From positions 968,952-1,032,951 of the forward strand of contig CAWKAA010000007.1 of NCBI GenBank assembly GCA_963847515.1: a stretch of DNA of 64,000 nt. The letters run 5' to 3'. The notes under the pieces were generated by a model. That model had not been told where the DNA came from, did no database searches, and was given only the letters and a program-made list of their open reading frames with translations. The stretch is from Terriglobia bacterium. GTDB taxonomy: Bacteria; Acidobacteriota; Terriglobia; Bryobacterales; Bryobacteraceae. The position numbers and the translations under genes are program-made. Below, one piece after another: positions 1 through 62,512 of the stretch; the first letter of the stretch is position 1; every line of letters starts with the position of its first letter.

Positions 1-1111
1 GGGAAACGAAGTTTACGTCAGAAGCCTCCTGAACGGCTTCGCTGCACTGGACCGCGAATCGGAATTCATCACGTACCTGTCCATGGATGATGCCGAGGCT
101 TGGGTACCAGCACGATTCCCGGTCCGCCGCATCGCGGGCAATCCGTTCGTGCGGCTGGGATGCGACCTGGCGCTCAAGCTGCGCCGGGACCGGGCGGAGC
201 TTCTGCACGTCCAGTACACGGCACCGCTGGGATGCCCGGTGCCGGTGGTGGTCAGCGTGCACGACGTCAGTTTTCTGGAGCACCCGGATTATTTCCCGTT
301 GTACCGGGCGCTTCAGCTGCGCCTGACGGTGCGGCACACCATTCGCAAGGCCGCCCGTATTCTAACGGGGAGCGAGTTTTCACGCAACTGCATCGCGCGC
401 GCCTATGACCTGGACCCAGATCGTATTTCCGTGGTGGCGAACGCAGCCGCCGGGTGCTTTCACCCAGTGCGGCGGGAGGCAGCGCTCGGCTACATGCTGA
501 AACGATTTGGAATCGCGGCGCCGTTCGTTCTTTCAGTGGGAGACCTGCAGCCGCGCAAGAATCACATCGGTCTGATCGAGGCGTTCGAGCGTATGGTGCA
601 CGCCCGGCCGCAACTCCAGCACCACCTGCTCCTGGCCGGGAAAGAGACGTGGTTTGCCCGGCGCGTCCGCGACGCGGCCAGGCATTCCGGGGTCTCAGAT
701 CGTATCCGGTTTCTTGGGTTCGTTTCCGATGACGATCTGTTGCAACTCTATAACGCGTGCGATTTATTTTGCTTTCCTTCCTTTTATGAGGGCTTCGGGC
801 TTCCCGTGCTGGAAGCTATGGCATGCGGCGCGCCGGTTGCGTGTTCGAATACATCGGCCATCCCAGAGGTCGCAGACGGAGCGGCTTTGTTCTTCAATCC
901 GTACAACCCTGACGAGATTACACGCGCTATGCTGGATTTGATTCAGCACAGGGAGTTACGGACGCGCACTCGCCGGCTGGGATTGCGGCGAGCGGCGGAC
1001 TTCAACTGGCGGAAAACAGCCCAGCAAACGCTGGAGGTTTATTACGAAGTCTTGGAACAATGCCAGTTAGTGACAGCCGGAGCGGCGCCCGCACCGATTG
1101 CGCAGCGATGA
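1..1111 (+). CDS. Glycosyltransferase family 4 (GT-B, GT1/RfaG-like), 5' end outside window
   Basis: Reading frame is open from base 2 with no stop, so the gene begins upstream. C-terminal GT4 signature FPSFYEGFGLPVLEAMACGAPV...SNTSAIPEV and typical EX7E region. 4-bp ATGA overlap with next gene. Confidence 0.85.
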   Translation, partial: GNEVYVRSLLNGFAALDRESEFITYLSMDDAEAWVPARFPVRRIAGNPFVRLGCDLALKLRRDRAELLHVQYTAPLGCPVPVVVSVHDVSFLEHPDYFPLYRALQLRLTVRHTIRKAARILTGSEFSRNCIARAYDLDPDRISVVANAAAGCFHPVRREAALGYMLKRFGIAAPFVLSVGDLQPRKNHIGLIEAFERMVHARPQLQHHLLLAGKETWFARRVRDAARHSGVSDRIRFLGFVSDDDLLQLYNACDLFCFPSFYEGFGLPVLEAMACGAPVACSNTSAIPEVADGAALFFNPYNPDEITRAMLDLIQHRELRTRTRRLGLRRAADFNWRKTAQQTLEVYYEVLEQCQLVTAGAAPAPIAQR

Positions 1112-1848
1112 TTCGCACCTCGCCCGAGCGGTGGCGGATTGTATTCTTTCTCTTCTTTCTGACGCTGCTTCCCAAGGCGCCGGCAGGACCTCCGGCGGAC
1201 CCCACGGGTTTCCCCTTTAGCAATGAGACCCTGAACTACACAGTAAACTGGCCTAGCGGTTTGGGACTGGGCGAGGCGCACATGAGCGCCTCGCGGATTC
1301 ACTCCTCCCAAAACGGCCCCGAACAGTGGGCGTTCCAGTTGACCCTGGATGCCACCATGGCGGGATTTGCCGTAGCCGACCGTTACAACGCAACCGCTTC
1401 CCTGGACCTGTGTTCGGCCACGTTCTACCGGGACTTCACGCACGGCACGCGAAAATCCCATGATCGCGACGATTTCGACCAGCAGGCAGGCCTGGCTCAT
1501 CGGGAAACCGTCGGCGGCGGAAAATCGGACATCTCCATTCCCCCGTGCGCACACGATGCGCTGACCTTCCTATATTTCACGAGGCGAGAATTGGGCCAGG
1601 GCCGAGTACCGCAACATGAGAAAATCCTGTACGGCGGGCCTTACCAGGTCAGGCTTGAATACACGGGTGAGCAGACGGTGAAAGTGAATGACAAGCCAGC
1701 CACCGCGGATCGTTTGATGGTCACCGTCCAGGGTCCGGCTTCCGAGATCACCTTCGAGATGTTCTTTGCTCGCGATGCGGCCCGAACGCCGCTGGTGATC
1801 CGGGTTCCACTGAGCCTAGGCATGTTTTCCCTGGAGCTGGCTCGCTGA
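1108..1848 (+). CDS. Hypothetical exported protein (N-terminal signal/TM MIRTSPERWRIVFFLFFLTLL)
   Basis: 247-aa ORF coupled to upstream GT4 (ATGA overlap) with hydrophobic N-terminus. No recognisable catalytic motif. Lies in a glycan-biosynthesis operon. Confidence 0.5.
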   Translation: MIRTSPERWRIVFFLFFLTLLPKAPAGPPADPTGFPFSNETLNYTVNWPSGLGLGEAHMSASRIHSSQNGPEQWAFQLTLDATMAGFAVADRYNATASLDLCSATFYRDFTHGTRKSHDRDDFDQQAGLAHRETVGGGKSDISIPPCAHDALTFLYFTRRELGQGRVPQHEKILYGGPYQVRLEYTGEQTVKVNDKPATADRLMVTVQGPASEITFEMFFARDAARTPLVIRVPLSLGMFSLELAR

Positions 1849-1856
1849 CGGGCAAC

Positions 1857-3140
1857 ATGCGCGTCGCGTTTTTCTCCCCACTTCCTCCATCCCGAAGCGG
1901 CATCGCAGATTACTCGCAGGCGCTTCTGGAGCCACTGAAACGGCACCTGGAGATCGAGGTCTTCTCCGATGGCGGGCGCGAGTTCCGGCCGGAAGGCTTC
2001 GACCTGGCGCTGTATCAGATCGGCAACAATCCTTATCACGATTTCGTTTACGAGACGGCGCTGCGGCATCCCGGCGTTGTCGTGATGCATGAATCGAACT
2101 TGCACCACCTGATTGCGGACATCACCATCAAGCGCGGCGATTGGGACGCGTATCTGGGGGAAGCCGAATACAACGGCGGCGCCGGCGCTCGGAGTACGCG
2201 CGGAGGGTGCAGCGCTCAAGGCCGGGCCCGACTACGAAGGCGTGCCCATGACGCGGCGCCTGCTGGAATCGGCCCAGGCCTGATGGTGCATGCCGATTTC
2301 ATGCGATGCGAAATGCGGGCGCCGGGTTTTGCCGGCCCGATCGCGCGCATCCCGCACGGCGCCTGGATTCCGGAAGTCGACCGCTGGCATATCGCCACCG
2401 GCTGGGATTGGACGAACGACGCCGCTGATCGGCATCTTCGGGTTCCTGAAGCCCTACAAGCGAATTGCCGAATCGCTGCGCGCCTTCCGCCGCCTGGTGC
2501 GCGCTGAGCCCGGAGCCCGAATGATCCTGGTGGGCGAGCAGCATCCGGAGTTCCCGCTCGAATCGCTGATCCGCACGCTGGATCTCTCGGCCAAGTCCGC
2601 GTGCTGGGCTTCACACCCATCGAGGATTTCGTGGGTTACATGGCAGCCATGCGACATCGTGCTCAATCTGCGCTATCCCACAGTTGGCGAGAGCTCCGGC
2701 AGCTGCTGCGCTCGCTGGGTCTGGGCGAGGCGGTGCTGGTCTCCGAGATCGGATCTTTCGCGAGTTGCCGGACGACGTGTGCCTGAAAGTGCCGGTGGGG
2801 CCGGGACGAAGAGGATCTGATCTTCGAGTACCTGAACCTGCTGGTCTCGCGTCCCGAGGCTCGCCAAAGCTTGGGCGCGCGGGCGAGGGATTACGTGGAG
2901 CGCGAGTGCAACTGGGCGGCCGTGGCGCGCCGATATGCCGCGTTCCTTTGCGCCGTCAAGGAAGGCCGCGAGTGGCGCGAGGTGGCGGCTACGGCGCCGG
3001 AGCCGCGCCCGAATCCGGAGCCTGTCCCTGAGCATATATGGCCGGCTGGGCGGCCAGCGCAGGCGCGCCAGGAATATATCGAAACCCATCAGACGCGGCT
3101 CGCTCAAACGCTGGAAATCACGCCACCGCGGCGGGCCTGA
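1857..3140 (+). pseudogene. GT4 glycosyltransferase disrupted by several frameshifts
   Basis: N-terminus MRVAFFSPLPPSRSGIADYS (frame 0). Later GT4 segments PLIGIFGFLKPYKRI...ILVGEQHPEF (frame +1), RVLGFTPIEDFVGYMAA (third frame) and C-terminus ARDYVERECNWAAVARRYAAFL (frame 0 again). At least 4 frame changes. Confidence 0.7.
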
Positions 3141-3800
3141 CGACCGCATCCTGGAAATGGGCGCGTATCTGCAAATCACCCCCGCGCTTCACACCAAGTT
3201 GGGATATGGCGAAGTGCGCGGCTGTTATTACGGCCGGCGGGCAGCGTGGACCATCGCACGTCACGGTTTCGGACGAAGGCGAGCGTTCGATGCGACATCG
3301 ACCACTTCGACGCCGAGAAGGACCCTTTCCCTTACCCCGACTGAGTATTTCTCCACGGTGCTCTGCTGCGAGCTGATCGAGCACCTGCTTCACGACCCCA
3401 TGCACCTGATGTCGGAGGTGAACCGCATCCTGAAGCCCGGCGGCCACCTGGTGCTGACCACTCCCAATATCGCGGGCTTGCGCGCCATCTGCGGCCATCC
3501 TGCAGGGCTATCATCCCGGATTTTTTCACGCTTACATCCGGCCCGCAGAGGACGGCGAGACGGCGGCCCGCCATAATCGCGAATACACGCCGCGCGAAGT
3601 CGCACAAGTCTGCTCGAAAATTCGGGGTTCGAGGTGACGCGCCTCGAGACCGGCGCGTTCCGCGAGGAGCCCAGCCGGAGTACGCCTGGGTGCTGCACCT
3701 GCTGGAGCGCTACAATCTGGATACCGGACTGCGCGGCGACGGCATCTACGCCGTGGGCCGCAAGACCGGCCCGGTGCGCGAGCGCTATCCCGTCCTGGCT
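3141..3800 (+). pseudogene. Class I SAM-dependent methyltransferase disrupted by several frameshifts
   Basis: Segments ILEMGAYLQITPALHTKLGYGEVRGCYYG, DHFDAEKDPFPYPD, FSTVLCCELIEHLLHDPMHLMSEVNRILKPGGHLVLTTPN and YNLDTGLRGDGIYAVGRKTG lie in different frames. Boundaries approximate. Confidence 0.6.
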
Positions 3801-3809
3801 CTATACATG

Positions 3810-4200
3810 ATGCGCGCCTATGATGTTCAGCACGCAGAAGTCCAGGCGAATGGCGATCAGTTCGATCACCGTGAGCTTCGAGATGCGCAATCTCACTTCC
3901 GAAGCCGTGGCGGCCGGCGGAAGGCTTCGCCGTCGGCTATCACGTCTTCGATCCCGAAACAGGCACGTTGGTGAGTGGATGGCCCGCGCACCGCGCCCGC
4001 AGGCGGACATCGCGCCAGGCGAAAACGCAGCGTTCGAACTGCATTTCGAGCTTCCGCCAGGAGCCTGGCCGGTACCGGGTGTTCGTTTCGGCCGTGCGAG
4101 AGAAGGCGTATTGGCTGTACGAGCGCGGCTCCGAGTTCCTGCTGGTCGAAGCGGCGGTGGACGCGGGCGCGCAAGGGTAGAGAGATTCCGCGTCGACGAC
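3810..4200 (+). pseudogene. Unassigned coding remnant split between two frames (APGENAAFELHFELPPGAWPVPGVRF / YRVFVSAVREKAYWLYERGSEFLLVEAAV)
   Basis: Protein-like translations in two overlapping frames with no single intact ORF. Continues the frameshift-ridden stretch. Confidence 0.3.
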
Positions 4201-4269
4201 GGAAACGCGTCGGTGCGCCGCGAAAGATTGTCTGCGCTCGGTCGGGCGCGCCTTCACCTGCCGTTCGAA

Positions 4270-4975
4270 CGATCTGGCGCAACCGCAGCCTCATCCGGAC
4301 CATGGTGCGCCGCGATGTGCTGGGGCGGTACCGCGGATCGTTCGGCGGCGCGTTCTGGACCGTGCTCAATCCGCTGATGCTGATGCTGACGTACTTCTTC
4401 GTCTTCGGCGTGGTGCTGCGCGCGCGGTTTCCCAACGACCCCAGCCGCGCCGGCTTTGCGCTCTATTTCCTGGCCGGCATGCTGCCGTGGCTGGCGTTCA
4501 GCGAGGCCGCCGGGCGCGCGCCAACCGTCATGCTGGAGCATCGCAATTTCGTCAAGAAGCTGGTATTCCCGGTGGAAACGCTGCCGGTGAACCTGGTGAC
4601 GGCGGGCCTGGTGAGCGAAGTCTTCGGCGTGGCGCTGTTTCTTCTGGCTCGTACTCTGGCACGTGGATACGTTCCCGCCTCGATCGTGTGGCTGCCGGTG
4701 CTGGTGGTCCCGCAGATTCTGTTGACGGCGGGCCTCTGCTGGTTCCTGGCGGCGCTCGGAGTGTTCGTGCGCGATCTGGCCCAGCATCAACGGGTTCCTG
4801 CTGACGCTGTGGTTTTTCCTGACGCCGATCTGCTATCCCGGAAGCTTCGCTGCCTGGCCCGGCCCTGCGGATCCTTTCGAAGAATCCGATGTTCGTGCTG
4901 GTGCGCGGCTATCGCGCTGCGCTGCTCGAGGGCCGTGCGCCCGCCTTTCAGTTCGTTACTGGAAGCTGTGCGTGA
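4270..4975 (+). pseudogene. ABC-2 type polysaccharide/O-antigen export permease (Wzm-like), frameshifted
   Basis: IWRNRSLIRTMVRRDVLGRYRGSFGGAFWTVLNPLMLMLTYFFVFGVVL... is a typical Wzm N-terminus and TM core. The frame switches near 4785 (LAQ|INGFLLTLWFFLTPICYP) and again before NPMFVLVRGYRAALLEG. No in-frame start found. No Wzt ATPase gene nearby. Confidence 0.6.
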
Positions 4976-5008
4976 TTTCAGCGGCGGTATTTTCATTCTG
5001 GGTCACGC

Positions 5009-5614
5009 ATGGTTTTACAAGCTGCGGAAATCGTTCGCGGATATGATGTGACTGTATTCGAAGGCGTGGCACTCGCCGAACTTGCCGGTTGCTGGATTCT
5101 GTGGTCGTTGGCGTTTATCAAGCCGCGAAAGCAAGCCGCCGGACAGCAAGCCGTGGTCGCCGCGCCCGTCGCGAAATGGGGCATTCTGCTGCAAATGTTT
5201 GGCTTTGCGCTGGTGTGGGCTTATATACGGCCCGTGGGATTTCAGAAGGCGCCGGCGTCGCTGGTCGTGTCCATGATTCTGGGCCCGGCCTCGGTGGTGC
5301 TGGTGTGGATGGCCGCACGGTATCTCGGAAAGCAGTGGCGTTTCGAAGCGGCGCTCATTCAGGATCACGATCTGGTGCGGACGGGCCCCTACCGCTTCAT
5401 CCGGCATCCCATCTATGCGTCGATGCTGGGCATGCTACTGGCCACGGGATTCGCCTGGACGTGGTGGCCGATGTTTGCGGGAGCAGTCGTCGCATATCTG
5501 GCCGGGACAGAAATCCGCGTGCGCGCCGAAGACCGTTTGCTGGAGGAACGATTCCAGGAAGATTTCATAACCTACCGTTCCCGTGTGCGCGCTTACATTC
5601 CCGGCCTGCGGTAG
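5009..5614 (+). CDS. Isoprenylcysteine carboxyl methyltransferase (ICMT)/phospholipid methyltransferase family membrane protein
   Basis: Multiple TM helices and the family motif TGPYRFIRHPIYASMLG...E-R.LE..FG..Y..Y (EDRLLEERFQEDFITYRSRV). Confidence 0.8.
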   Translation: MVLQAAEIVRGYDVTVFEGVALAELAGCWILWSLAFIKPRKQAAGQQAVVAAPVAKWGILLQMFGFALVWAYIRPVGFQKAPASLVVSMILGPASVVLVWMAARYLGKQWRFEAALIQDHDLVRTGPYRFIRHPIYASMLGMLLATGFAWTWWPMFAGAVVAYLAGTEIRVRAEDRLLEERFQEDFITYRSRVRAYIPGLR

Positions 5615-6477
5615 TGGTTCGGAGAAGGCTCGACATGCACGAGCACATCGGCCACCCAGTCCACGTCGCGGCGGATGCGATTGCGCACTTGCTCGGCAAT
5701 GTCGTGTGAGAACCGCACGGTGATTTCGGGGTCCACCTCGAGGTGGAGATCGACGTGATACTGCAGTCCCGTCTTGCGCGCGAAGCATTTTTCAACGCCT
5801 TCCACCCCTGAAACCTGCTGGGCCACATCGCGAATCGTCCGCATCATCCGGTCGCTGGGCATAGTGTCCATCAACTGCAGGCCGGTGTCGCGCGTCACCC
5901 GCACCCCGGTGAAAATCACGATCAGCCCTACGACGAAGCCGCCATAGTGGTCGGCAGCGAGGAAACGTTGAGGATCGTGGAGCGTAAGGCTGACGGCGGC
6001 AAGGGCGGCGAGACCAGAGACGATATCTACGGCGTCGTTCCAGCCGTCGGCGGCCAAAGCAGTGCTGCCAATCTTTTTCCCAAACCGGAATTTCACGCCG
6101 CATAGAACGCTCTTGACGCCAATGGAAACGATCAGTGGCCAGATGGCATAGGCAGCCGGCGGCTGGTGCGTTTCACCAGCGAAGAGCAGCGCGTGGAATG
6201 AGATGGCCACGCCGGTCCCGAACAGCATCAAACCGACCAGCAGCCCAGTGAGCGTCTCGGCGCGGCCGTGGCCGTAAGGGTGATTCCAGTCCGCCGGTTT
6301 AGCGGCGAGCGTCAGTCCCAAAAAGACCAGGCCCGAAGACAGGACATCGCCGGCCGACTCCAGTCCGTCGGCCACGACCGAAATCGAGCCGGCCATTATG
6401 CCAGTGATGATCTTCGCCACGGCGAGGCCGCTGCTCACGATCATGCCGCCGAGCGCAACCTTCTGGCCGATCCGCAT
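5593..6477 (-). CDS. Cation diffusion facilitator (CDF) family metal efflux transporter (FieF/CzcD-like)
   Basis: Six TM helices with HxxxD-type motifs (NHPYGHGRAE, ADGWNDAVD) and a C-terminal cytoplasmic domain. Convergent 22-bp overlap with the ICMT gene. Confidence 0.85.
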   Translation of the reverse strand: MRIGQKVALGGMIVSSGLAVAKIITGIMAGSISVVADGLESAGDVLSSGLVFLGLTLAAKPADWNHPYGHGRAETLTGLLVGLMLFGTGVAISFHALLFAGETHQPPAAYAIWPLIVSIGVKSVLCGVKFRFGKKIGSTALAADGWNDAVDIVSGLAALAAVSLTLHDPQRFLAADHYGGFVVGLIVIFTGVRVTRDTGLQLMDTMPSDRMMRTIRDVAQQVSGVEGVEKCFARKTGLQYHVDLHLEVDPEITVRFSHDIAEQVRNRIRRDVDWVADVLVHVEPSPNHYRRPGM

Positions 6478-6531
6478 CCCTTCAGTTTAGCCAGTCGTGA
6501 TAATCGCCGAAGGGAGCGTCCTGGGTGTGGC

Positions 6532-7305
6532 TCAATTCGCCGAAGGAGCCAGATGCCCGCGGCGATTCTTTTGCCAGCAGTCCTCGTTATGATCGGTGCA
6601 CTGCGGACGCTCTTTGCCGTAGCTGATAGTAGTCAATTGAGCGGCTGGAACGCCGAACTCGATCAGGTAGTCTCTGGCCTCTCTCGCGCGGCGATCGCCC
6701 AGCGCCAGATTGTACTCGGCGGACCCACGTTCGTCACAGTGGCCCTCCACACTGACTTTTGCACTCTGGAAACTTTTGAAGATGTCCTTCAAAGCGCTGG
6801 CGTCCTGCTGCAGTGCTGTGCGCGCATCCAGCCGAAGGCTGGACTTGTCATAGTCAAAGTAGGCATCCCTGGTCTGATCGCTAAGCAGGTCGCCGAATGA
6901 CTTTCGGGGTGCGACTGCGGCGGTTGGCGCGGGAATGGTTACTCGCACCGCAGTGGTATCCTCCGCTGTCCCGCCAGGTCCCTTTGCGACGAGCGTATAT
7001 GTCGTGTTGCTATTCGGGAACACCTGCCGGCTGCCGCCGGGTTGCACGGCGCCGGCACTGGGCTCAATCGTGACACTTGTGGCATTGCTGACGGACCAGC
7101 TCAAGGTGGACGACTCGCCACGTGTGATGTCTGCTGGTGAAGCCGCAAACGTCGAGATCACCGGTTTTAGCGGCGGAGGCGCAGATTCTTTGGCGGCCGG
7201 CATTGGAGCCGGGGGCGGAAGGGCGGCAACTTTCTTCTTACAAGCGGACGCGATTAGCAAGATGCACAACAGCAGCGCAAATAACTCGAATTTTCGCTTA
7301 GTCAT
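6532..7305 (-). CDS. OmpA-family / peptidoglycan-associated lipoprotein (Pal-like)
   Basis: Start at MTKRKFELFALLLCILLIASAC (lipobox LIASAC) with AGGAGA SD upstream. Pro/Ala-rich linker. C-terminal OmpA_C motif VEGHCDERGSAEYNLALGDRRAREARDYL. Confidence 0.85.
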   Translation of the reverse strand: MTKRKFELFALLLCILLIASACKKKVAALPPPAPMPAAKESAPPPLKPVISTFAASPADITRGESSTLSWSVSNATSVTIEPSAGAVQPGGSRQVFPNSNTTYTLVAKGPGGTAEDTTAVRVTIPAPTAAVAPRKSFGDLLSDQTRDAYFDYDKSSLRLDARTALQQDASALKDIFKSFQSAKVSVEGHCDERGSAEYNLALGDRRAREARDYLIEFGVPAAQLTTISYGKERPQCTDHNEDCWQKNRRGHLAPSAN

Positions 7306-7597
7306 ATAGTTTTTCTTCTCCTGTCGTTTTCTGTGAAAACACCGCGGCTGCATGGTGGCGCCTGGCAGCCGCGGCCCCTGGGATTCGGTGCCCTTTTCCG
7401 TCACTGCGCCTCTTACACCTAGTTAGCGGGAAATCGACCTCGGATAGATATACTGTCCAGCCAGTATTTTGGAGGGCGCCGGGGCGTGAGCCCGGCAGGG
7501 CCGGGTCGTATCCGATTTGAGGCGAAAATACCGGGCCGGAGGGATGTTACTCGCAGCCTTGTGTTCTTATCCTGAAAACAGCAAAGGAGTCAAACAC

Positions 7598-7888
7598 ATG
7601 ACGCAATTGTCGGTAAGAGTCATGACGCTGGTGACAGCGATTCTATGGGGCGGATGCCTGCTGTTCGTCGGACTCGTCAACCTGGCAGCCCCATCGTACG
7701 GCGTTGATTTTCTGCACATGATGAGTTCGGTATATCCGGGTTTCCATATGACGCGCACCCTGGGCGAGGTGGTTCTCGGTACGGTGTATGGGTTCGTGGA
7801 CGGCGCAATTGCCGGCTGCCTGTTCGCCTGGCTCTACAACTGGATTAGGGGCATCAGAACTCACAGTACGCAAGAATCGCACTCGTAA
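7598..7888 (+). CDS. Small hypothetical membrane protein (2-3 TM)
   Basis: AAAGGAG SD 8 nt upstream of the ATG at 7598. Hydrophobic segments TLVTAILWGGCLLFVGLV and GFVDGAIAGCLFAWLY. Confidence 0.5.
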   Translation: MTQLSVRVMTLVTAILWGGCLLFVGLVNLAAPSYGVDFLHMMSSVYPGFHMTRTLGEVVLGTVYGFVDGAIAGCLFAWLYNWIRGIRTHSTQESHS

Positions 7889-7972
7889 TGTGCGGACGAG
7901 ACAGAGCAGCGGTTCGACGACGGCGCCGTGCTCTTATAAACTGATGTCATAGCTGACGATTTCACAGAGGGG

Positions 7973-9375
7973 ATGAGACCTGGAGAACCAACCTTCCGGG
8001 CAAGAACGCGGCTTGTTCTGCTGGCGGGGTTTGGGGGATTGCTCGCGTTGATGGCCGTGGGAGGATTCGACGCCATCCAAGTGCTGCAGCAGATACAGGG
8101 CGGAATATCGAAATCCGCCGCGCTTTTCTTTCCCGCAACCGGGCGCTCGAACAGATCCGGTCTTCGCTTTACCTCTCGGGTACGTTCGTGCGCGACTATC
8201 TGCTCGATCCGGAGCCACGGGGTGCTGAGCTGCAGCGGGGTAACCTGCAAGCGCTCCACCGCGGGATGGAAGCCGCGTTAGACAGGTACTCCGGTTCGCT
8301 GAGCCCGGAAGAACAAAATCCCATGCGGGCGCTGCGAACTGAGCTGGCCGCTTACTGGAAGGTGCTGGATCCGATTCTGCAGTGGTCGCCCGACGAGAGG
8401 CGCGTACGCGGTTATGCGTTCCTGCGCGATGAGCTGGTGCCGCGGCGCGCCACGGTGCTAGAGATCGCCGATAAGATCGCCGCCATTAATGAACAGGAGC
8501 TGAACGGCGGCGACGAACGTCTGGAGGAGACCTTCGGGCGTTTCCGGCGCAGGCTATTGCTGATGTTAGCGGCCACGCTCAGCATTGGCCTGGTGCTGGC
8601 CGGCGCGGTAGCATCGCACATTCTGAGGCTCGAGAAACAAGCGAGATTGCGTTACGAGCAGGTGGTACACGCGCAGACAGAACTCAAAGAATTATCCGCG
8701 CGCCTGGTCAAAGCGCAAGAGGAAGAACGCCGAGCTATTTCGAGAGAACTGCACGACGAGGTGGGACAGTCGTTGAGCGCGCTGCTGATGGAGCTGGGGA
8801 ACCTGGCTGCGGTGGCGCCTCAGAATTTGGAACCTTTGCAGCGGCACCTGGAATCGATCCGGCGGCTGGCTGAGTCCAGCGTGAATGTGGCGCGCAATAT
8901 GGCGTTGCTGCTGAGACCCTCGATGCTCGACGACTTCGGCCTGGTTCCCGCGCTCGAATGGCACGCGCGCGAGGTTTCGAAGCGCACGGGCATGGCGATT
9001 AGCGTGGAGGCGGATACGGTGTCTGACTCCCTGCCCGATTCTCACAATACTTGTGTCTATCGCGTGGTTCAAGAGGCCCTGCACAACTGCACCCGGCATG
9101 CCGATGCGCGTACCGTACGCATACATGTGCGCCAGGAACCCGAGCGCATCGTACTTTCCGTGCAGGACGACGGAAAGGGATTCGATGCCCGGCACGTGCG
9201 CGGCCTGGGGCTGGTAGGGATGGAGGAGCGTGTGCATCATCTGGGAGGAAACTTCCAGGTGAAATCCGAGCCAGAGCACGGAACGACGCTGGTGGTGGAA
9301 TTGCCGCTGGCCGCAGCAGAACCGCCTGCCGAACCGAAAGCCGGACGGCCGGAAAGCGTGGCGCGTAGCGCCTAA
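7973..9375 (+). pseudogene. Two-component sensor histidine kinase (HisKA_3/NarX-LiaS type), apparent frameshift near 8098
   Basis: TM1 LVLLAGFGGLLALMAVGG in frame 2. The sensor domain continues NIEIRRAFLSRNRALEQIRSSLYLSGTFVRDYL in frame 1 after a GGG run at ~8098. Then TM2, HisKA_3 (ISRELHDEVGQSLSAL) and HATPase_c (VQDDGKGF...GLGLVGMEERV) are intact from 8188 to 9375. Confidence 0.65.
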
Positions 9376-9378
9376 CCT

Positions 9379-10029
9379 ATGAACCCTATTCGAATTCTGC
9401 TGGCCGACGATCACACGGTTATGCGTAACGGGCTGCGGCTCCTGCTCGAGCGCCAGCGAAACCTGACCGTCGTCGGCGAGGCCTCCGATGGCCGCGAAAC
9501 CGTGCGGCTGGCTGAACAACTCTCGCCCGACGTCGTGGTGATGGACATCGCCATGCCCAATCTGAACGGCATCGAGGCGGCGCGCCAGATCATGGCGTCG
9601 AATCCGGACCTGGCCATCGTGATTCTGAGCATGCATTCCGATGAGAGCTACGTGATTCGCGCGCTCAAGGCGGGGGCGCGGGCTTACTTGCTCAAAGACT
9701 CGGCGGAAGGCGACCTCATCGCCGCCATCCACGCGATCACCGAGGGCAAATCTTTCTTCAGCCCGGCAATTAGCCGGATTTTGGTGGAAGACTACATGCG
9801 ACAGCTCGAGCAGAAACACGTGGAAGACACTTACGAGCTGCTTACCGCGCGGGAGCGGGAGATTTTGCAGTTGCTTGCTGAGGGTAAGACCAACAAGGAA
9901 GTGGCCGCGATGCTCAATCTGAGCATCTACACGGTAGAAACGCACCGGACACACATTCTGCAAAAGTTGAATTTGCACAACGTGCCGGAACTGATTCTGT
10001 ACGCGGTGAGAAAAGGGATTATCGCGTAG
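9379..10029 (+). CDS. Response regulator, NarL/FixJ family (REC + LuxR-type HTH)
   Basis: ILLADDH...D...VVVMDIAMP receiver motifs. C-terminal LTAREREILQLLAEGKTNKEVAAMLNLSIYTVETHRTHILQKL. Follows the kinase by 3 bp. Confidence 0.9.
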   Translation: MNPIRILLADDHTVMRNGLRLLLERQRNLTVVGEASDGRETVRLAEQLSPDVVVMDIAMPNLNGIEAARQIMASNPDLAIVILSMHSDESYVIRALKAGARAYLLKDSAEGDLIAAIHAITEGKSFFSPAISRILVEDYMRQLEQKHVEDTYELLTAREREILQLLAEGKTNKEVAAMLNLSIYTVETHRTHILQKLNLHNVPELILYAVRKGIIA

Positions 10030-10041
10030 GCTGATGGCCGC

Positions 10042-11133
10042 TTATTTGTTCAGCGATGCCAGCCAGTAGCCTGGACGGGTGCGTATCTTGAGGTTCGCGC
10101 GGTTGACGTCGACCACGATCTCGTGGAAACCGCCCTCTGTAGTGTTGTTCGGGCTGTAAGTGATCAGGTATTGGCTGTGGATGTCGTTGCCGACTTTCTC
10201 GATGGCCTCCTCGATCCCTTTCTGCTTGCCGAAGCTGAACTGGGTTCCGCCGGTACCCTGCGTGAAAACCTCGACGGGATTATCCACGAAGATGGCTTTT
10301 GTATCCTTGAAGATTTCCACCAACAGCGGGACGAACTGGGCGGAGGCGCCATCGCTGCCCGTTGTCTGCATAACGGTGGTGGGTGTCGCTGGAACTTGGG
10401 AAGGTATCGAGTGCATGGCGGGCGGCAGGGTGTCCGGGCGCGGGTCCGCCGGACGGGAGGTGAGTCCCGCCATCATTCTTGAAATATCCACCGCGTATAC
10501 GCTCACGTTATTCATCTGAATATCCATGAGTGCATCGCGAACCTTGCCTTCGCTCCCCTTGTCTCGAGTTTCGGAAATCATCAGAAGAATACGCCGGCGA
10601 TTGGCGGGCCGGGAGCGCAGCTTGCGCACAGATTCAATCACGGCATCGATCATGCGGCTGCTGCCGCTACCTGGGGTAATTTTCTTGAGCCCGGCTTCGA
10701 TCTTGTTGGGGTCCGAAGTGAAATCGTCTTGCACCCATCGGAAACGGTGATCGAAGGCCATCACCGCGGCTTCGCCCTGGTCTCCGGTGATTAACGGCTG
10801 AATCATCGCGCCAATTTTGGCGATCTTGGGGAGCATGCCTTCGACGTGATCGTTAGCTTGAATGGCGATAACCAGAGAGATGGGTATAAAGGTAACATCC
10901 ACGTGGATGTTCTGCTCTTTACTGTTATCCAACAGACGGAAATCCTGCGGCTGGAGGCCGCTGACATACTCGCCCTGGCGATTCAGAACGGTAACCGGCG
11001 CCATTACCACATTCACGCCGACGCGGATGGGCTGATCCGAGGCGGCTTCCTGAGCTGGTGCTTGCTGAGCGGATATTGAGGCGCCACCTGCGGCACACAG
11101 CAGCAGGGCAAGTGCAAGTCGGGTGGGTACCAT
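10042..11133 (-). CDS. VWFA-related Acidobacterial domain protein (TIGR03436-like), secreted
   Basis: Signal peptide. Pattern VNVVMAPVTVLNRQGEYVSGLQPQDFRLLDNSKEQNI followed by a VWA-like core (ILLMISETRDKGS). Confidence 0.7.
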   Translation of the reverse strand: MVPTRLALALLLCAAGGASISAQQAPAQEAASDQPIRVGVNVVMAPVTVLNRQGEYVSGLQPQDFRLLDNSKEQNIHVDVTFIPISLVIAIQANDHVEGMLPKIAKIGAMIQPLITGDQGEAAVMAFDHRFRWVQDDFTSDPNKIEAGLKKITPGSGSSRMIDAVIESVRKLRSRPANRRRILLMISETRDKGSEGKVRDALMDIQMNNVSVYAVDISRMMAGLTSRPADPRPDTLPPAMHSIPSQVPATPTTVMQTTGSDGASAQFVPLLVEIFKDTKAIFVDNPVEVFTQGTGGTQFSFGKQKGIEEAIEKVGNDIHSQYLITYSPNNTTEGGFHEIVVDVNRANLKIRTRPGYWLASLNK

Positions 11134-11168
11134 AAATTTCAGACGTTTCGGCTCCAGGCCTCGTTACT

Positions 11169-11654
11169 TTACAACTGATGCTCGGTATGGCCGCTGAGAA
11201 GCTTTAGCACGTGCGGCACCACTTCCACGATAGCATCCAGAGACTCGACTGCGCCCCGGGGCGAACCAGGCAGATTCACAATGAGCACCGGGCCGCGGAT
11301 GCCGGCGATGGCGCGGGAGAGGCTTGCGAAGGGTGTGGAATTGCGTCCGGTGGCGCGCATCAGCTCACCGATACCGGGAATCTCGCGGTCGATGACGGCC
11401 CGCGTGGCCTCCGGAGTGACATCACGCGCGGCCACGCCGGTGCCGCCGGTGGTGAAAATCGCGCACACCTGGCCCGCGTCAGCAACCGCGCTCAGCCGCT
11501 GGCTGATGGCGGGCAACTCGTCGGGAACTACCTCCACCGCGCTCACCGGCCAACCTAATTGTTCAAGACGCGCTTTCACTGCGGGACCGGAGGCGTCCGT
11601 ACGTTTGCCAGCAAAAACAGAATCACTCACGGTAACTACTGACACCGGTTTCAC
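11169..11654 (-). CDS. Molybdenum cofactor biosynthesis protein MogA/MoaB
   Basis: MoaB/MogA fold motifs VTVSDS...GKRTDASG...IFTTGGTG...RDVTPEA. 4-bp overlap with the upstream moaC. Confidence 0.85.
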   Translation of the reverse strand: MKPVSVVTVSDSVFAGKRTDASGPAVKARLEQLGWPVSAVEVVPDELPAISQRLSAVADAGQVCAIFTTGGTGVAARDVTPEATRAVIDREIPGIGELMRATGRNSTPFASLSRAIAGIRGPVLIVNLPGSPRGAVESLDAIVEVVPHVLKLLSGHTEHQL

Positions 11655-12133
11655 CGCGGCTTCCTCGCGGGCGCCCGCCGGAAATCGTCGCTCTTGCCGC
11701 CAGTCTTTTCGAGCAGGTAAAGATCCTGGATTGAAATAGACTTATCAAGCGCCTTGGTCATGTCGTACACGGTCAGCGCCGCGACCGCGGCCGCGGTCAG
11801 GGCTTCCATCTCAACTCCCGTCTGTGCGGTAGTGGCGGCCGTGGCCGTGATACGAACGCCATCCGTCTCCACCTGCACTTCGACATCGGCATGAGAAAGC
11901 ATCAGCGGATGACATAGCGGAATCAGATCCGACGTCTTCTTGGCAGCGGCGATTCCGGCGATGCGGGCGATTTCGAGCGGGTTACCCTTGGGGTTGTCAG
12001 GCAGCCTGGCAAGCACCTCGGGCGCGATGCGAACGAAGGCTTGCGCGCGGGCCGTGCGGCGGGTTTCGGCTTTCTCCGAAATGTCCACCATGCGCGGGCT
12101 GCCCGCGGAATCGTAGTGCGAGAGTTTTTTCAT
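11651..12133 (-). CDS. moaC: Cyclic pyranopterin monophosphate synthase MoaC
   Basis: MoaC signature KGNPLEIARIAGIAAAKKTSDLIPLCHPL...TGVEMEALTAAAVAALTVYDM. Confidence 0.9.
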   Translation of the reverse strand: MKKLSHYDSAGSPRMVDISEKAETRRTARAQAFVRIAPEVLARLPDNPKGNPLEIARIAGIAAAKKTSDLIPLCHPLMLSHADVEVQVETDGVRITATAATTAQTGVEMEALTAAAVAALTVYDMTKALDKSISIQDLYLLEKTGGKSDDFRRAPARKPR

Positions 12134-24266: not shown

Positions 24267-24917
24267 GTGAAGAGAGAAAACGAAACAGAGATCCTGGATT
24301 CGGACGGCGTTCCGGACGAATTGGTGAAGCGCGCCTTCCGGGATCTCGCCAGGATCCATCGGTGGCTGGGCGATACCCAGTTCGTGATTCGTGCAATCCG
24401 CGAGGATCCTATGCCCGTTCGCCGAATCGTGGATGTGGGCTGTGGTACGGGCCTGGTGCTGGAAAACGTCCGGCGCAAGCTTGGCGTCGAGGCCGTGGGC
24501 GTCGATGTGAATCCGCGGCGGTCCATTAGCACAGCCATCCCCAGATACCAGGCCGATGCAGTCCGGGACTCGCTGCCGTCCGCGGATGTGGCGTTCAGTA
24601 TGCACCTGGGCCATCACCTTTCGGAGGAAAATCTAGTGGATCTGATCCGGAACGTAGGCAAGTTCTACCGCCGGTTTATCCTGCTGGATCTGGTTCGGCA
24701 CCCGTTGCCGCTTGCACTCTTCCGTCTCTTCGTAGCACCTTTTGTGTGCCGGATTGTTGTTGTGGATGGGCAAACATCAATCCGGCGTTCATACACACCG
24801 GCTGAGCTTCATAGGATCGCGGGTTCTGCATTAGCCGGCTCGCGCGGCACTTTCCGGCAGTCCGTCGCACCCCTTTACGCCCGGCAGGTTGTCGACATTC
24901 TCTACAACCACAGTTGA
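24267..24917 (+). CDS. Class I SAM-dependent methyltransferase
   Basis: VDVGCGTGLV (motif I) and the downstream acidic motif. Divergent from the FAD oxidoreductase operon. Confidence 0.7.
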   Translation: MKRENETEILDSDGVPDELVKRAFRDLARIHRWLGDTQFVIRAIREDPMPVRRIVDVGCGTGLVLENVRRKLGVEAVGVDVNPRRSISTAIPRYQADAVRDSLPSADVAFSMHLGHHLSEENLVDLIRNVGKFYRRFILLDLVRHPLPLALFRLFVAPFVCRIVVVDGQTSIRRSYTPAELHRIAGSALAGSRGTFRQSVAPLYARQVVDILYNHS

Positions 24918-24992
24918 GCTTTTCGAAGGTGTCTGCCGTTCTGTCGCTGCTGGTTCGATAGAAAGCGCAGGTCCCCGGCCTGACCCGCCGTG

Positions 24993-25784
24993 CTACAACT
25001 TGTCTACGACCACGACGCTCCAGCCGTTCTTGGCGCGCGACTCGCGCAGGGTCGCGCCGCTCGCGGAGAGAGCCGCTGCCACGCTGCCAACTTCCGGCTG
25101 CTCGAAGCCGCTCACAATCGCGATGCCACCTGCTCGCAGCGTACGCATGAGTTCGGGCGCCAGCGCGATGACGGCTTCGGGGCTGATATTGGCGACCACA
25201 ACGTCGATACTCTCACTGCGCACCGCGTCGGCCGTCCCGACAAAGCATAGCGGCTGCCGGGCGAGTTCCACGGCTACGGGGTCGATATCGCAGGCGATCA
25301 CACGCTTCGCACCCAGCAGCGCCGCGGCTCGGGAAAGAATCCCTGAGCCTGTTCCCACGTCGAGCACCATCATTCCCGGCTTCAGCTCGCGTTCGAGAGC
25401 CTCCAGGCACAACTGGGTGGATTCGTGGGCGCCCGTGCCAAAGGCCATTCCTGGATTGACTTCGATGCGGAGCCGGCCGGGCGGCGTAGGATCGTCGCGC
25501 CATGCGGGCACCAGGAAGAACCGCGCGCCCACGCATTGCGGGTCGAGCCGGCTTCTGGCTACGGCCACCCAGTCGCGCGGCTCTTCATGCTGACATCGCG
25601 CCGACCAACCGGAAAATTCGCCCGCCAACCCCTGCGCCTGGTTGTCCCGGTCAAAGAACGCACGCAGGCCGCAGCCTCCGCCGGGAAGATCGGATTCCGT
25701 GATGCCGCTCGACCCGCGATCCCACAATTCGGCGATGAGCAGGTATTTTTCCTGTTGCCGGCATTCCAGATACAGAGAGAACAT
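24993..25784 (-). CDS. prmA: Ribosomal protein L11 methyltransferase PrmA
   Basis: PrmA core FFLVPAWRDDPTPPGRLRIEVNPGMAFGTGAHESTQLCLEALE...VLDVGTGSGILS. Confidence 0.8.
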   Translation of the reverse strand: MFSLYLECRQQEKYLLIAELWDRGSSGITESDLPGGGCGLRAFFDRDNQAQGLAGEFSGWSARCQHEEPRDWVAVARSRLDPQCVGARFFLVPAWRDDPTPPGRLRIEVNPGMAFGTGAHESTQLCLEALERELKPGMMVLDVGTGSGILSRAAALLGAKRVIACDIDPVAVELARQPLCFVGTADAVRSESIDVVVANISPEAVIALAPELMRTLRAGGIAIVSGFEQPEVGSVAAALSASGATLRESRAKNGWSVVVVDKL

Positions 25785-25793
25785 GGTTGGCGG

Positions 25794-26609
25794 ATGAAAC
25801 TTCAGGGAATCTTCGCCGACATCACAACTCCATTCGACCACAAAGGAGACATTTACAAAGCTAAAGTTCAGCACAACGTCGAGAAATGGAACCGGACCAC
25901 GCTGGCTGGGTACGTCGTATGCGGCGCGGCGGGCGAAGGGGCTTTGCTAAGCGCCGAAGAAAAAGTGGCGGTCTGGGAGATGGTGGTGAAGCACGCTTCC
26001 GAGGACAAGCTGTTGATCGCTGCCTCCGCCGCGCCCGGCGTTCGCGAAACCGTTTGGCTCAGCAACCGCGCGGCCGACTTGGGCTACAAGGCCGCGTTCA
26101 TCGATTCACCACACCACCGTCCGGAAACGGCTTCCCTGTATTTCCGTTCGGTGGCGGATGACTCTAGGATTCCGCTGATCCTGGCGGGTGGGGCGCCGGA
26201 TTTGGAGGCATCCGCCGCGCAACATCTGAACGTGATCGCCGTTTGTGATAGGCAGGGCCGCACGGCGCATCCGGGCGTGCAGGTACTGGTCAGTTCCGCA
26301 GGTCATTTGTGGCCTGCTTTGCAATCCGGCGCTTCCGGAGCCATTCTCGACTTCGCCGCCGCCGCACCCTATGCGGCCATTTCCATTTGGGAAGCGCATC
26401 GGACGCGTGAAGAGGAGGCGGGCATCGAATTGCAAAACCGCATCCGGCGCGCGGCTGAATTGATCGGCGAATCTTTCGGCGTTTCTGGCCTGAAACACGC
26501 CATGGACCTGAATGCTTACTACGGCGGGCCGCCGCGCCTGCCGTTTGTAGTACCCGCGTCCGACGTGCGGCGCGAAATTGAAGAAGCATTCCGGGAGTTG
26601 AAGGGCTGA
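25794..26609 (+). CDS. Dihydrodipicolinate synthase/N-acetylneuraminate lyase family (DapA-like) class I aldolase
   Basis: ATG only 9 bp from the divergent prmA start. GIFADITTPFDHKGDIYKAKVQHNVEKW...GYVVCGAAGEG pattern of DapA family. Confidence 0.65.
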   Translation: MKLQGIFADITTPFDHKGDIYKAKVQHNVEKWNRTTLAGYVVCGAAGEGALLSAEEKVAVWEMVVKHASEDKLLIAASAAPGVRETVWLSNRAADLGYKAAFIDSPHHRPETASLYFRSVADDSRIPLILAGGAPDLEASAAQHLNVIAVCDRQGRTAHPGVQVLVSSAGHLWPALQSGASGAILDFAAAAPYAAISIWEAHRTREEEAGIELQNRIRRAAELIGESFGVSGLKHAMDLNAYYGGPPRLPFVVPASDVRREIEEAFRELKG

Positions 26610-40707: not shown

Positions 40708-42106
40708 TCAGTCGTGGCGCAGGACCTCCATGGGATCGATTCCCAGCACTTTCATCGCTGGGACGAAACACGCTGCCATCCCCACTACGGCTAACATCGC
40801 GGCGACCGCAGTAAACGTCATCGGGTCGGTCGGACTCAACTGATATAGAATGCCGACAAGTACGCGGGTCAACCCGGCCGCTGCCACGCCTCCAACGACC
40901 AACCCCGCCATGGTAAGTCGAGCTCCTTGGCAGAGCAGCAGTAGCATCGTGTCCACCGCCTTGGCGCCGAGCGCAACCCGGATCGCAATCTCTCGTGCTC
41001 GACTGCTGGCTGCGTATGACATCACGCCATAGATGCCAGTCAGGGCCAGCAAGAGCGCCAGGACAGCGAACAAGCCAACCATTTGGAGTGCGAAACGTTG
41101 CGTCGCGACGGCTGCTGCCACCAGGTCCTCCATGGGGCGAATGTCCTGGATGCTGAGATCGTTACCCATCTGCCGGGCCACTTGGCGCGCTGCCGCGATC
41201 AGCGTGGCAGCATCCGCAGTCGCGCGCAACACAACATAGTTGCCGAAGCTGGGGTTCTGCAAAAAGGGCTGATAGAACGTCGCCTCCGTTCGTGCGTCCG
41301 TCGGACTATCCTTCACGTCCCCAACCACGCCCACGATCGTCATCGTGGTGTCGACAATGTTTAGGTCGCTAAACAAGTTGATGCGATGTCCCAGGCTGTC
41401 TTTCGCCGTGGGCCAATTCTGTAGTGCGAGAGTCTTATGGATTAATAGAACCATGGGCGCGTCAAAATGGTCCGATATCGTGAGCCAGCGGCCTGCGAGC
41501 AGCGGAACACCGATTGCTTTCAGATAGTCAGGCGAAACAAACACATAATGCGCGTGCATGCTAAGGTTTGCTGGCCTAGGCCGGCCTTCAATGCCGAACA
41601 ACGCGTTGTCATTGGCGCCAGTCCATGGAAGATTCGACCCCGCTCCGGTCGCGGTCACCCCAGGTATTTGAGCCAGGTTCTCCACGAAGTGTTCGTAAAA
41701 CGCCGTATCTCCTGGCGCCTGTCAGCTTGGGATACGAGAGGGCCGTGCTCATAGTCAGGGCGCCCTGCGGACGGAAGCCGGGATCTACCCGGCCGATTGC
41801 TGCAAAACTGCGCAATAACAATCCCGCGCCAATGAGCAACGCGAACGAGAGGGCGACTTCCGCGATCACGAATATTCCACGCGGCCGGACCGTCACTTGC
41901 CGCACTTGCGTCGACGCCGCCAAAGCCCCCGCTAGTCCGAACAGAAGGCCGGCTAGTAACGATGTGCCCGCCGTCAGCAGGACTACATGCGCATCGAGGC
42001 TGATCGATTGGAGACGCGGCACCTGTTCAGGGCCGAGAGCTACCAGCGTACGCACACCCCAATTAGCGAAGAGTAGTCCCAGCGTGCCTCCGATGGTCGC
42101 AAGCAT
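40708..42106 (-). pseudogene. ADOP-type FtsX/MacB-like permease, 5'-truncated and frameshifted
   Basis: C-terminal MacB_PCD + FtsX region (GIYGVMSYAASSRAREIAIRVALGA...SPTDP) at 40708-41685. Middle FtsX TM segment in another frame at 41609-42106. The N-terminal ~350 aa expected for ADOP proteins is absent. Confidence 0.65.
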
Positions 42107-42556: not shown

Positions 42557-42633
42557 TGGTGGGCGGTCGCGGGCTCGAACCGCGGACCTTCTGCTTGTAA
42601 GGCAGACGCTCTAACCAACTGAGCTAACCGCCC
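42557..42633 (-). tRNA. tRNA-Val (anticodon TAC)
   Basis: Reverse complement GGGCGGTTAGCTCAGTTGGTTAGAGCGTCTGCCTTACAAGCAGAAGGTCCGCGGTTCGAGCCCGCGACCGCCCACCA. Perfect cloverleaf, encoded CCA. Confidence 0.9.
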
Positions 42634-48692: not shown

Positions 48693-48840
48693 CCTTCATG
48701 CCCGAATTTGCTTAAAGTGAGCAGTTTTGAGCAGACATTGCTCCAAGAAAGTTTTAGCGTTGCTGGATCGGGGTCGAGGATTGGCATTCCTGGGATATGA
48801 AAGCCGGGCTCTTGTCGTGAAAATGTTAGAGGAGATGAGT

Positions 48841-57559: not shown

Positions 57560-57572
57560 TACGATTCTGCCT

Positions 57573-59976: not shown

Positions 59977-60026
59977 ATAGATCCGTTGAATTAATATTGT
60001 AGAAGATGGATTGGACATTTGGGCCT

Positions 60027-62510: not shown

Positions 62511-62512
62511 TG

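Follow-up and report, generated by a model that had tools for sequence, protein, structure and literature searches.

A stretch of some 3 kb in which a bacterial glycan locus cannot be read in any one frame raises a simple question: is the organism losing these genes, or is the sequence wrong? The locus lies near the left end of the window, by which we mean the whole 64,000-nucleotide stretch analysed here (contig CAWKAA010000007.1 of assembly GCA_963847515.1, a Terriglobia bacterium of the Bryobacteraceae). A preliminary description, made from the letters alone, left two readings standing, a genuinely decaying O-antigen/EPS export locus or a local patch of poor sequence and indel errors. Our evidence supports the second, through independent assemblies of the same strain that lack the indels, in essence the refuting test named in that description, and through the signature of a mis-merged consensus. 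With a probability of roughly 0.8, we take the frameshift cluster to be a consensus artefact of the deposited assembly, in which two diverged forms of one pair of genes were collapsed, and not biology. Both genes involved, one for a glycosyltransferase–methyltransferase fusion and one for a Wzm-like permease, are intact in the organism.

The neighbours of the broken stretch are unremarkable. A GT4 glycosyltransferase gene (1–1111, + strand; Pfam Glycos_transf_1 and Glyco_transf_4), whose 5' end lies outside the window, is followed at 1108–1848 (+) by a gene for a DUF3108 exported protein (PF11306, positions 2–208 of 209) whose ATGA start overlaps the stop of the GT4 gene. Both are unbroken, as had been described. 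The GT4 gene shares 96.6% DNA identity with the relative L004, with zero indels and a dN/dS of 0.12, and the DUF3108 gene has a syntenic counterpart of 246–247 aa in L001–L004. On the other side, an intact gene at 5048–5614 (+) encodes a PEMT/ICMT-like membrane methyltransferase (PF04140, PF04191; the NCBIfam isopcys_mtase match is below that model's cutoff). Its GTG start overlaps the stop of the permease gene, and 188-aa orthologues are found in L001–L003 and in L086, a contig introduced below. Between these neighbours four broken genes had been counted, where alignment to homologues gives two. The first, at 1857–3810 (+), joins a GT4 domain to a class-I SAM methyltransferase and carries about 22 frame-breaking indels; in relatives it is one fusion protein of about 650 aa, with 3147 homologues, of which nearly all of the best 120 are 648–661 aa long. 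The second, at 3807–5051 (+), with about 16 such indels, is a Wzm-like ABC-2 permease that begins with a β-sandwich domain. Its 3813 homologues are mostly 406–408 aa (385–408 aa in relatives), and what had been listed as a separate ORF of unknown function is the N-terminal domain of this permease.

Once the frames are corrected, both proteins look ordinary. The stitched GT4 half aligns to the homologue P0001 at 100% query coverage and 85% identity, and the methyltransferase half lines up collinearly with both L004 and L086. The corrected fusion matches Glycos_transf_1 over 5–170 of 172 positions and Methyltransf_23 over 18–163 of 164, the same as P0001, and the corrected permease matches ABC2_membrane (PF01061) over 2–210 of 211. 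L086 itself encodes an unbroken C terminus of the fusion and an intact 385-aa permease gene.

How badly is the sequence broken? Reading in three frames shows that no single frame can span 1857–5051 on the + strand. Together with a Viterbi decode of all 64 kb under a codon model, this reading resolves at least 14 frame switches in that interval and finds no comparable cluster in the remaining 61 kb or so. Alignment to intact orthologous loci raises the number to 34–38 frame-breaking indels of 1–2 bp, nearly all of 1 bp (about 22 insertions and about 14 deletions), the first at 2188 and the last at 4983–4988, a density of about one per 80 nt. The cluster first described is thus real, but its count of at least about 10 frame changes in some 3 kb was too low, and each gene is in about 17–23 pieces, not two to five. 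The one long indel-free stretch in the patch, 4269–4783 (+), covers the transmembrane core of the permease and still contains blended substitutions. As had also been noted, most long genes elsewhere in the window are intact, and they give full-length Pfam matches. The sole exception outside the patch is the remnant of an ADOP permease at 40708–42106, truncated at its 5' end and carrying one frameshift. Other candidate frameshifts, in the gene pairs at 24267–26609 and 56627–58421 and in the gene at 53856, look like normal gene boundaries or intact genes.

The most direct evidence comes from two Logan contigs, L086 (from ERR10755940) and L087 (from ERR12036779), which belong to two independent run assemblies and were located by way of a neighbouring protein that is exactly identical. 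From 5285 to 11981 they differ from the window by two mismatches and zero indels in 6.7 kb; from 3175 to 5284 they differ by about 190 substitutions and 26 indels. The two differ from each other by one mismatch in 4.7 kb, and every indel of the window within their coverage is absent from both. They cover the window from 3175 onward; for 1857–3175 the reference is L004, the relative with 96.6% identity in the flank. A literature search for the two accessions returned nothing. Taken together, these comparisons delimit a patch of about 3.07 kb (roughly 2024–5089), within which substitution divergence from the strain's allele is 9–13%. On the left, mismatch density to L004 climbs at about 2024–2040; on the right, mismatches to L086 and L087 end at about 5089, apart from two late ones at 5266 and 5284. 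All frame-breaking indels (2188–4988) fall inside it. It might be that L086 and L087 come from a sister strain with another allele, but this would leave unexplained the way in which the indels follow SNPs, to which we now turn.

If two alleles had been merged, the indels should sit where alleles differ, and they do. An automatic 'merged SNP' test was passed by 13 of 17 single-base insertions, where the null expectation is 5.6 ± 1.9 and 13 or more were reached in 0 of 2000 simulations. By inspection, both alternative bases stand in tandem at 15 of the 17, and in 8 of those 15 one base of the pair is the strain's and its partner is the alternative allele of the family (3490, 3602, 3974, 4059, 4785 and 4837 are examples). 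Thus CAC/CAG has become CAGC at 4782–4785, and TAC/TAT has become TATC at 4834–4837. Deletions behave in the same manner: in 11 of 14, the column that was lost is one at which strain and family majority have different bases, a situation found at 24.7% of background columns (P = 3.5e-5). Such placement on allelic SNPs, with both bases kept or the column dropped, is the mark of a consensus collapsed from two divergent haplotypes. Homopolymers, an association that the preliminary description had proposed to check, play no part; an identical base adjoins only 2 of 20 single-base insertions. Neither do the indels gather at places where family members vary in length (3 of 38 coincide, with 2.6 expected).

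The substitutions point the same way. At the 376 sites where window and strain allele differ, the family plurality base is in the window at 240 and in the strain at 71; in a control pair of real alleles the same test gives 219 vs 246. Differences between window and strain are scattered singly, with a mean spacing of 8 nt. Compared with L004, the window is about 0.04 closer to distant relatives and slightly farther from near ones, quartet distances are not additive, and site patterns divide 89 vs 17. Patch GC is 0.652 vs 0.61–0.62, and the shift toward the family majority could in part reflect compositional convergence of an allele that is genuinely richer in GC. A count of private alleles, tried as a measure of consensus-likeness, did not discriminate, since third positions are saturated. 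Random substitution errors as the source of the extra divergence were rejected: the distance from window to outgroup equals that from L004 to outgroup, and no invariant site has changed.

We infer what happened at the level of the reads, that the assembly was built from long reads, and what kind of source the second haplotype had. In this scheme, an assembler or polisher would have merged reads from two versions of the locus over about 3 kb (about 2024–5089). One version would be the strain's own allele; the other, richer in GC and typical of the family, would stem from a co-occurring strain, from a related population or from a paralogue. Where the two differ, choosing one base would yield a site-by-site blend of substitutions, retaining both side by side would yield a 1-bp insertion, and retaining neither would yield a 1-bp deletion. 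No intact copy of the allele in the window came up in searches, the best matches being 85% for the fusion and 91% for the permease. A 95% match to a 172-aa stretch belongs to another lineage with 88.7% DNA identity throughout. A contig scan of 185,579 species-representative genomes gave one match, the relative L005, at 75% identity, and tblastn within the window found no paralogue that could serve as the second haplotype.

Which other explanations could account for such a patch? Genuine pseudogenisation, a glycan-export locus in decay with some 35 frameshifts accumulated in two genes, is the one that the deposited sequence itself invites: the frameshifts are there, no Wzt ATPase lies nearby, and strains often differ in their surface-glycan loci or lose them. 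We nevertheless consider it very unlikely. Some 35 neutral indels imply far more neutral substitutions, and even a 1:1 ratio would put about nine changes at invariant columns; at the 722 columns where 41 other family members all agree, the window has none. With the frames restored, about 1000 codons read through without an internal stop, and dN/dS is low (0.19–0.21). Insertions outnumber deletions and nearly all are of 1 bp, whereas the indel spectrum of bacterial pseudogenes is biased toward deletions. The indels are also missing from two assemblies otherwise nearly identical to the window, and the lack of Wzt is shared by relatives whose genes are intact. Thus, of the usual marks of a pseudogene, frame-disrupting mutations are present, but relaxed constraint, reproducible lesions and a natural indel spectrum are not, and the idea of a decaying export locus falls with them. 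Even further from credible is functional recoding or phase variation, with programmed frameshift sites or slippage-prone switches controlling glycan expression. Slippage is known to switch surface-glycan genes on and off by phase variation in other bacteria, but here it would need about 35 sites within 2.8 kb, not one of them in a homopolymer or repeat tract, and no homologue among thousands shows such frame changes.

The remaining alternative is an artefact of a plainer kind, a generic low-quality long-read consensus. A single real divergent allele, that of a recombinant minor strain for example, would have been represented by few error-prone reads and would carry random indel errors. Several features fit: an error spectrum of indels only, at about 1.2%, and invariant sites free of substitutions resemble residual long-read errors, the substitutions are mostly at third codon positions and look evolutionary, and the source contig is 2.24 Mb long. 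Random errors, however, should favour homopolymers and should show no tendency to fall on allelic SNP columns. Distances and site patterns would be tree-like for a single real allele, and they are not; the dN/dS of the corrected genes, moreover, exceeds the 0.08–0.14 of most real pairs of the same genes. We therefore regard this reading as improbable, and hold to the collapse of two versions into one consensus.

What, then, is the locus when it is not broken? It is one ordinary example of a glycan cluster that is widespread in the Bryobacteraceae, and relatives carry dTDP-rhamnose genes and further GT4 genes upstream. That no Wzt ATPase is present had been correctly observed. No LSGGQ or GxxGxGK[ST]T motif occurs in any frame of the 64-kb window, nor in the loci of five relatives (L001, L005, L007, L008 and L011), examined over about 6–10 kb on either side, and the relatives' gene tables list no ABC_tran gene. 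As a sign of decay the observation does not hold, because relatives with intact genes also have no ATPase; it is a conserved trait of the Bryobacteraceae locus. The domain arrangement of the permease is mildly interesting. A model of the orthologue P0121, whose transmembrane part has no more than moderate confidence, matches the Aquifex aeolicus Wzm chain 6m96_B (Foldseek E 4e-11, TM-score 0.75 on target), as well as Wzm chains 7k2t_D and 6oih_C (E 4e-11 to 1.5e-10 and TM-score 0.74–0.75 on target for the three chains). Residues 1–127 are modelled as a β-sandwich with pLDDT of about 90. This domain matches Wzt chains and carbohydrate-binding domains (8dl0, 8dky, 6o14 and 2r5o) weakly, at E of about 1e-4 to 1e-3, and these matches are interspersed with generic β-sandwiches such as GH3 accessory domains and AlkC. 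From these models comes a tentative and rather doubtful idea, that the permease with its Wzt-CBD-like N-terminal β-sandwich and the adjoining GT4–methyltransferase form a conserved Bryobacteraceae export module, with no ATPase nearby, for the putative addition and recognition of a methyl cap.

The practical consequences lie in the databases. Through the artefact, a public assembly shows about 40 fragments where there are two genes, intact and highly conserved, and at least one nonsense product has already reached NCBI/ENA-derived protein collections. This is P0241, a deposited product of 249 aa that starts at 4305 in the indel-free stretch and runs through a frameshifted tail to 5051; it is the window's own broken ORF, from the NCBI/ENA record of a single 2,236,982-bp contig. 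Pseudogene counts, an inferred loss of surface-glycan export and models trained on the genome would all be misled. The way out is a reusable, read-free recipe for telling artefact from decay, which looks at changes in invariant columns, indels on SNP columns and allele bases in tandem. The implied second haplotype may, separately, mirror real strain-level allelic variation at the locus.

Several known systems help to place these results. In the ABC-transporter-dependent O-antigen pathway, terminal methylation is coupled with cap recognition, as in E. coli O9a, where WbdD acts with the carbohydrate-binding domain of Wzt, and in A. aeolicus WzmWzt (PMC3482155, PMC9445017). The present locus resembles these in its predicted Wzm-like permease and in a predicted methyltransferase domain fused to a glycosyltransferase. 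It differs from WzmWzt in that the β-sandwich is on the N terminus of the permease and not on the C terminus of an ATPase, and from the kinase–methyltransferase WbdD in that the fusion partner is a GT4. Should the β-sandwich truly read the methylated end of a chain, the module for cap recognition would have shifted from ATPase to permease.

With the pseudogene clusters of reductive genome decay the patch shares several frame disruptions in adjacent genes, but genuine decay is accompanied by random substitutions and nonsense codons, by deletions of greater size and by lesions that persist from one isolate to the next; the window shows none of these. Indel errors that split genes are familiar in genomes and MAGs built from Nanopore or PacBio CLR long reads, where they are usually genome-wide and associated with homopolymers. 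Like genes truncated in that way, those of the window yield short ORFs and a broken product in protein databases; unlike them, the indels are confined to one patch, avoid homopolymers and track allelic SNPs. A close parallel is Trypanosoma brucei Lister 427, in which a collapsed long-read assembly misaligned reads at nearby allelic variants and added indels and frameshifts to the consensus, and truncated-looking ORFs proved full-length once the haplotypes were separated in a phased assembly (PMC8445201). The trypanosome is a diploid eukaryote and both of its haplotypes are known, whereas ours is a 3-kb patch of a bacterial contig whose putative second haplotype would be far more divergent. In the window, the indels lie on SNP columns, often with the bases of both alleles.

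Read in three frames, the DNA between 1857 and 5051 encodes recognisable protein sequence that switches frame every 50–150 nt. Over the whole 64 kb, Viterbi decoding on codon usage placed at least 14 switches between 1840 and 5042 and found no second cluster of comparable switching in the rest of the window, where the long genes give full-length domain matches (OMP_b-brl_4, 2–838 of 838; Amidase, 1–445 of 445; DUF1501, 1–390 of 390). The concentration of frameshifts is thus real, and the preliminary description was right that most long genes elsewhere are intact. Alignment to four syntenic loci on Bryobacteraceae-type metagenome contigs (L001–L004), and later to an independent assembly of the strain (L086), gave 34–38 frame-breaking events, the first at 2188 and the last at 4983–4988. 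Nearly all are of 1 bp, with deletions slightly fewer than insertions, and a single stretch of 515 nt (4269–4783) has none. Coding indels number zero in both flanks, at 1–1856 against L004 and at 5285–11981 against L086.

What had been described as four broken genes are two. The opening part, translated by stitching frames together by hand, returned 3147 homologues, the best at 85% identity along the whole query; of the 120 listed, nearly all are of ~650 aa and carry both a Glycos_transf_1 and a SAM-methyltransferase domain. The order in L001–L004, which the window shares, is GT4 (384 aa), DUF3108 (247 aa), a GT4/methyltransferase fusion (650–652 aa), an ABC-2 permease (408 aa), a PEMT/ICMT-like methyltransferase (188 aa), a cation efflux protein and OmpA (both on the minus strand), a histidine kinase and a response regulator. 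From these two-domain homologues and the shared order, the lesions fall in the fusion (1857–3810, ~22 events) and the permease (3807–5051, ~16 events), and the supposed separate unknown ORF is the N-terminal ~125 residues of the permease. Frame correction restored full-length Pfam matches to both, identical to those of intact orthologues.

Only one further gene of the window was found disrupted, an apparent remnant of a duplicated permease of the ADOP family (40708–42106, minus strand). Stitched over one frameshift near 41.69–41.72 kb, it matches positions 327–803 of 803 in TIGR03434 (E 8e-129); the first ~326 are absent and the space upstream is too short for them. Some 450 nt upstream of it is a tRNA-Val (42557–42633, minus strand). 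Two large outer-membrane barrel proteins of OMP_b-brl_4 type, of which one has a CarboxypepD_reg N-terminal domain and the other lacks it, and a PSCyt1/PSCyt2/PSD1 plus DUF1501 gene pair (together at 48727–52452, 53856–56627 and 60006–63922) look intact and unremarkable for genomes of Acidobacteria type.

Is the locus decaying, or is the sequence at fault? Decay, one of the two readings first offered, would account for broken frames. Against it, dN/dS between the window and L004 is low at 0.19–0.21 (real allele pairs of the same genes give 0.08–0.14, one pair reaching 0.21). After frame correction, about 1000 codons contain no internal stop and the differences fall mostly at third codon positions. 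In bacteria, substitutions are usually several-fold commoner than indels; with ~35 indels, even a 1:1 ratio predicts ~9 neutral changes at columns invariant in 41 other family members, and the window has none at 722 such columns. This is the most decisive point against decay: the process behind the indels introduced no random substitutions. Together with the missing stops and low dN/dS, it rules out natural decay on sequence alone; of the four features that define a pseudogene locus, the cluster lacks three. Two independent Logan assemblies, L086 (ERR10755940, 8.8 kb) and L087 (ERR12036779, 4.7 kb), were found through a cation-efflux protein exactly identical to that of the window. They differ from each other by 1 mismatch in 4.7 kb and from the window by 2 in 6.7 kb at 5285–11981; at 3175–5284 they differ from it by ~190 substitutions and 26 indels. 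Inside the patch (about 2024–5089), L086 and L004 share 97% identity, and L086 encodes an intact 385-aa permease and, without a break, the last 210 aa of the fusion. The same strain, independently assembled in two runs, thus has intact genes and the expected allele, with the window's patch as the outlier. This is a close equivalent of the read-level evidence that the preliminary description named as able to overturn decay. The contig ends of L086 and L087 (window 3175 and 4735) both fall inside the patch; a graph that branches there, with several alleles of this locus co-occurring in the samples, would produce such breaks.

The other reading, a local patch of poor sequence, was correct and can be sharpened. 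We put the probability that the indels are artefactual at about 0.95. The cluster belongs with assembly artefacts; the likely mechanism is a merge of two haplotypes into one consensus. Identity to L004 is 96.6% over 1–1856, and mismatch density rises ~fourfold from about 2024 onward. Nor do the substitutions look like those of one simple second allele. At 376 sites that differ between window and strain allele, the plurality base among 42 relatives is found in the window at 240 and in the strain at 71; two real alleles compared as a control were symmetric (219 vs 246). The window sides with distant relatives, and the strain with near ones, at 89 sites, against 17 for the reverse. Relative to L004, the window is ~0.04 nearer to distant relatives and ~0.01 farther from near ones, so the two fit no tree as sisters. 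The lean could be partly compositional, since GC in the patch (0.652 at 2100–4950) exceeds that of the flanks and of the strain allele as it stands in L086 and L004 (0.606–0.619); the second haplotype would be GC-richer, resembling the distant clade of relatives (0.65–0.66). Recombination would leave blocks, and the differences are single and scattered (mean spacing 8 nt, longest identical run 59 nt).

It is the placing of the indels that points to a merge. Of 17 single-base insertions, 15 fall at a column that is polymorphic in the family and leave its two alternative bases side by side; in 8 of these, the pair combines the strain's base with the other family allele. At 4782–4785 the strain has CAC, most relatives CAG and the window CAGC; TAC and TAT give TATC at 4834–4837 and 3786–3789, and ATT and ATC give ATCT at 3488–3491. 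An automatic form of this comparison scored 13 of 17 (null 5.6 ± 1.9; 13 reached in 0 of 2000 simulations). Among 14 deleted columns, the strain base differs from the family majority in 11 (background 24.7%, P = 3.5e-5). Homopolymers, which the preliminary description proposed to check, are avoided (2 of 20), and no tracking of length-variable regions was seen. Reads of two divergent haplotypes were probably piled together under a gap-friendly consensus; a true SNP would enter the alignment as one insertion and one deletion, and the consensus would retain both bases, neither or one. Homologue searches and the window itself yielded no sequence matching the second haplotype. The artefact has spread into protein databases, since the frameshifted product P0241 (4305–5051, 249 aa) is present in NCBI/ENA-derived collections. 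Its 79-residue tail is out of frame and partly restored. NCBI/ENA records place it on a single 2,236,982-bp contig, which would fit a long-read assembly.

Beneath the artefact, the genes themselves look like those of the ABC-transporter-dependent O-antigen pathway. The permease orthologue P0121, when modelled, matches Wzm from A. aeolicus (E 4e-11, TM-score 0.75 on target), and upstream in relatives lie dTDP-rhamnose genes and several genes for GT4 enzymes. Two features set the locus apart from the canonical pathway. An ABC ATPase motif (Walker A GxxGxGK[ST]T or LSGGQ) is missing from every frame of the 64-kb window and of five related loci (L001, L005, L007, L008 and L011; about 6–10 kb either side). 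The absence of a Wzt ATPase first reported therefore stands, its reading as a sign of decay does not, and the permease's partner, if any, would have to be encoded elsewhere. The permease also bears an N-terminal β-sandwich (window 3807–4190; P0121 residues 1–127), predicted with pLDDT about 90, whose structural neighbours include, at weak E values of 1e-4 to 1e-3 and among generic β-sandwiches, the Wzt carbohydrate-binding domains 8dl0, 8dky, 6o14 and 2r5o. Most of those listed among 3813 permease homologues are of 406–408 aa, so they have the extension too. Both departures from the canonical O-antigen system are conserved features, not signs of decay.
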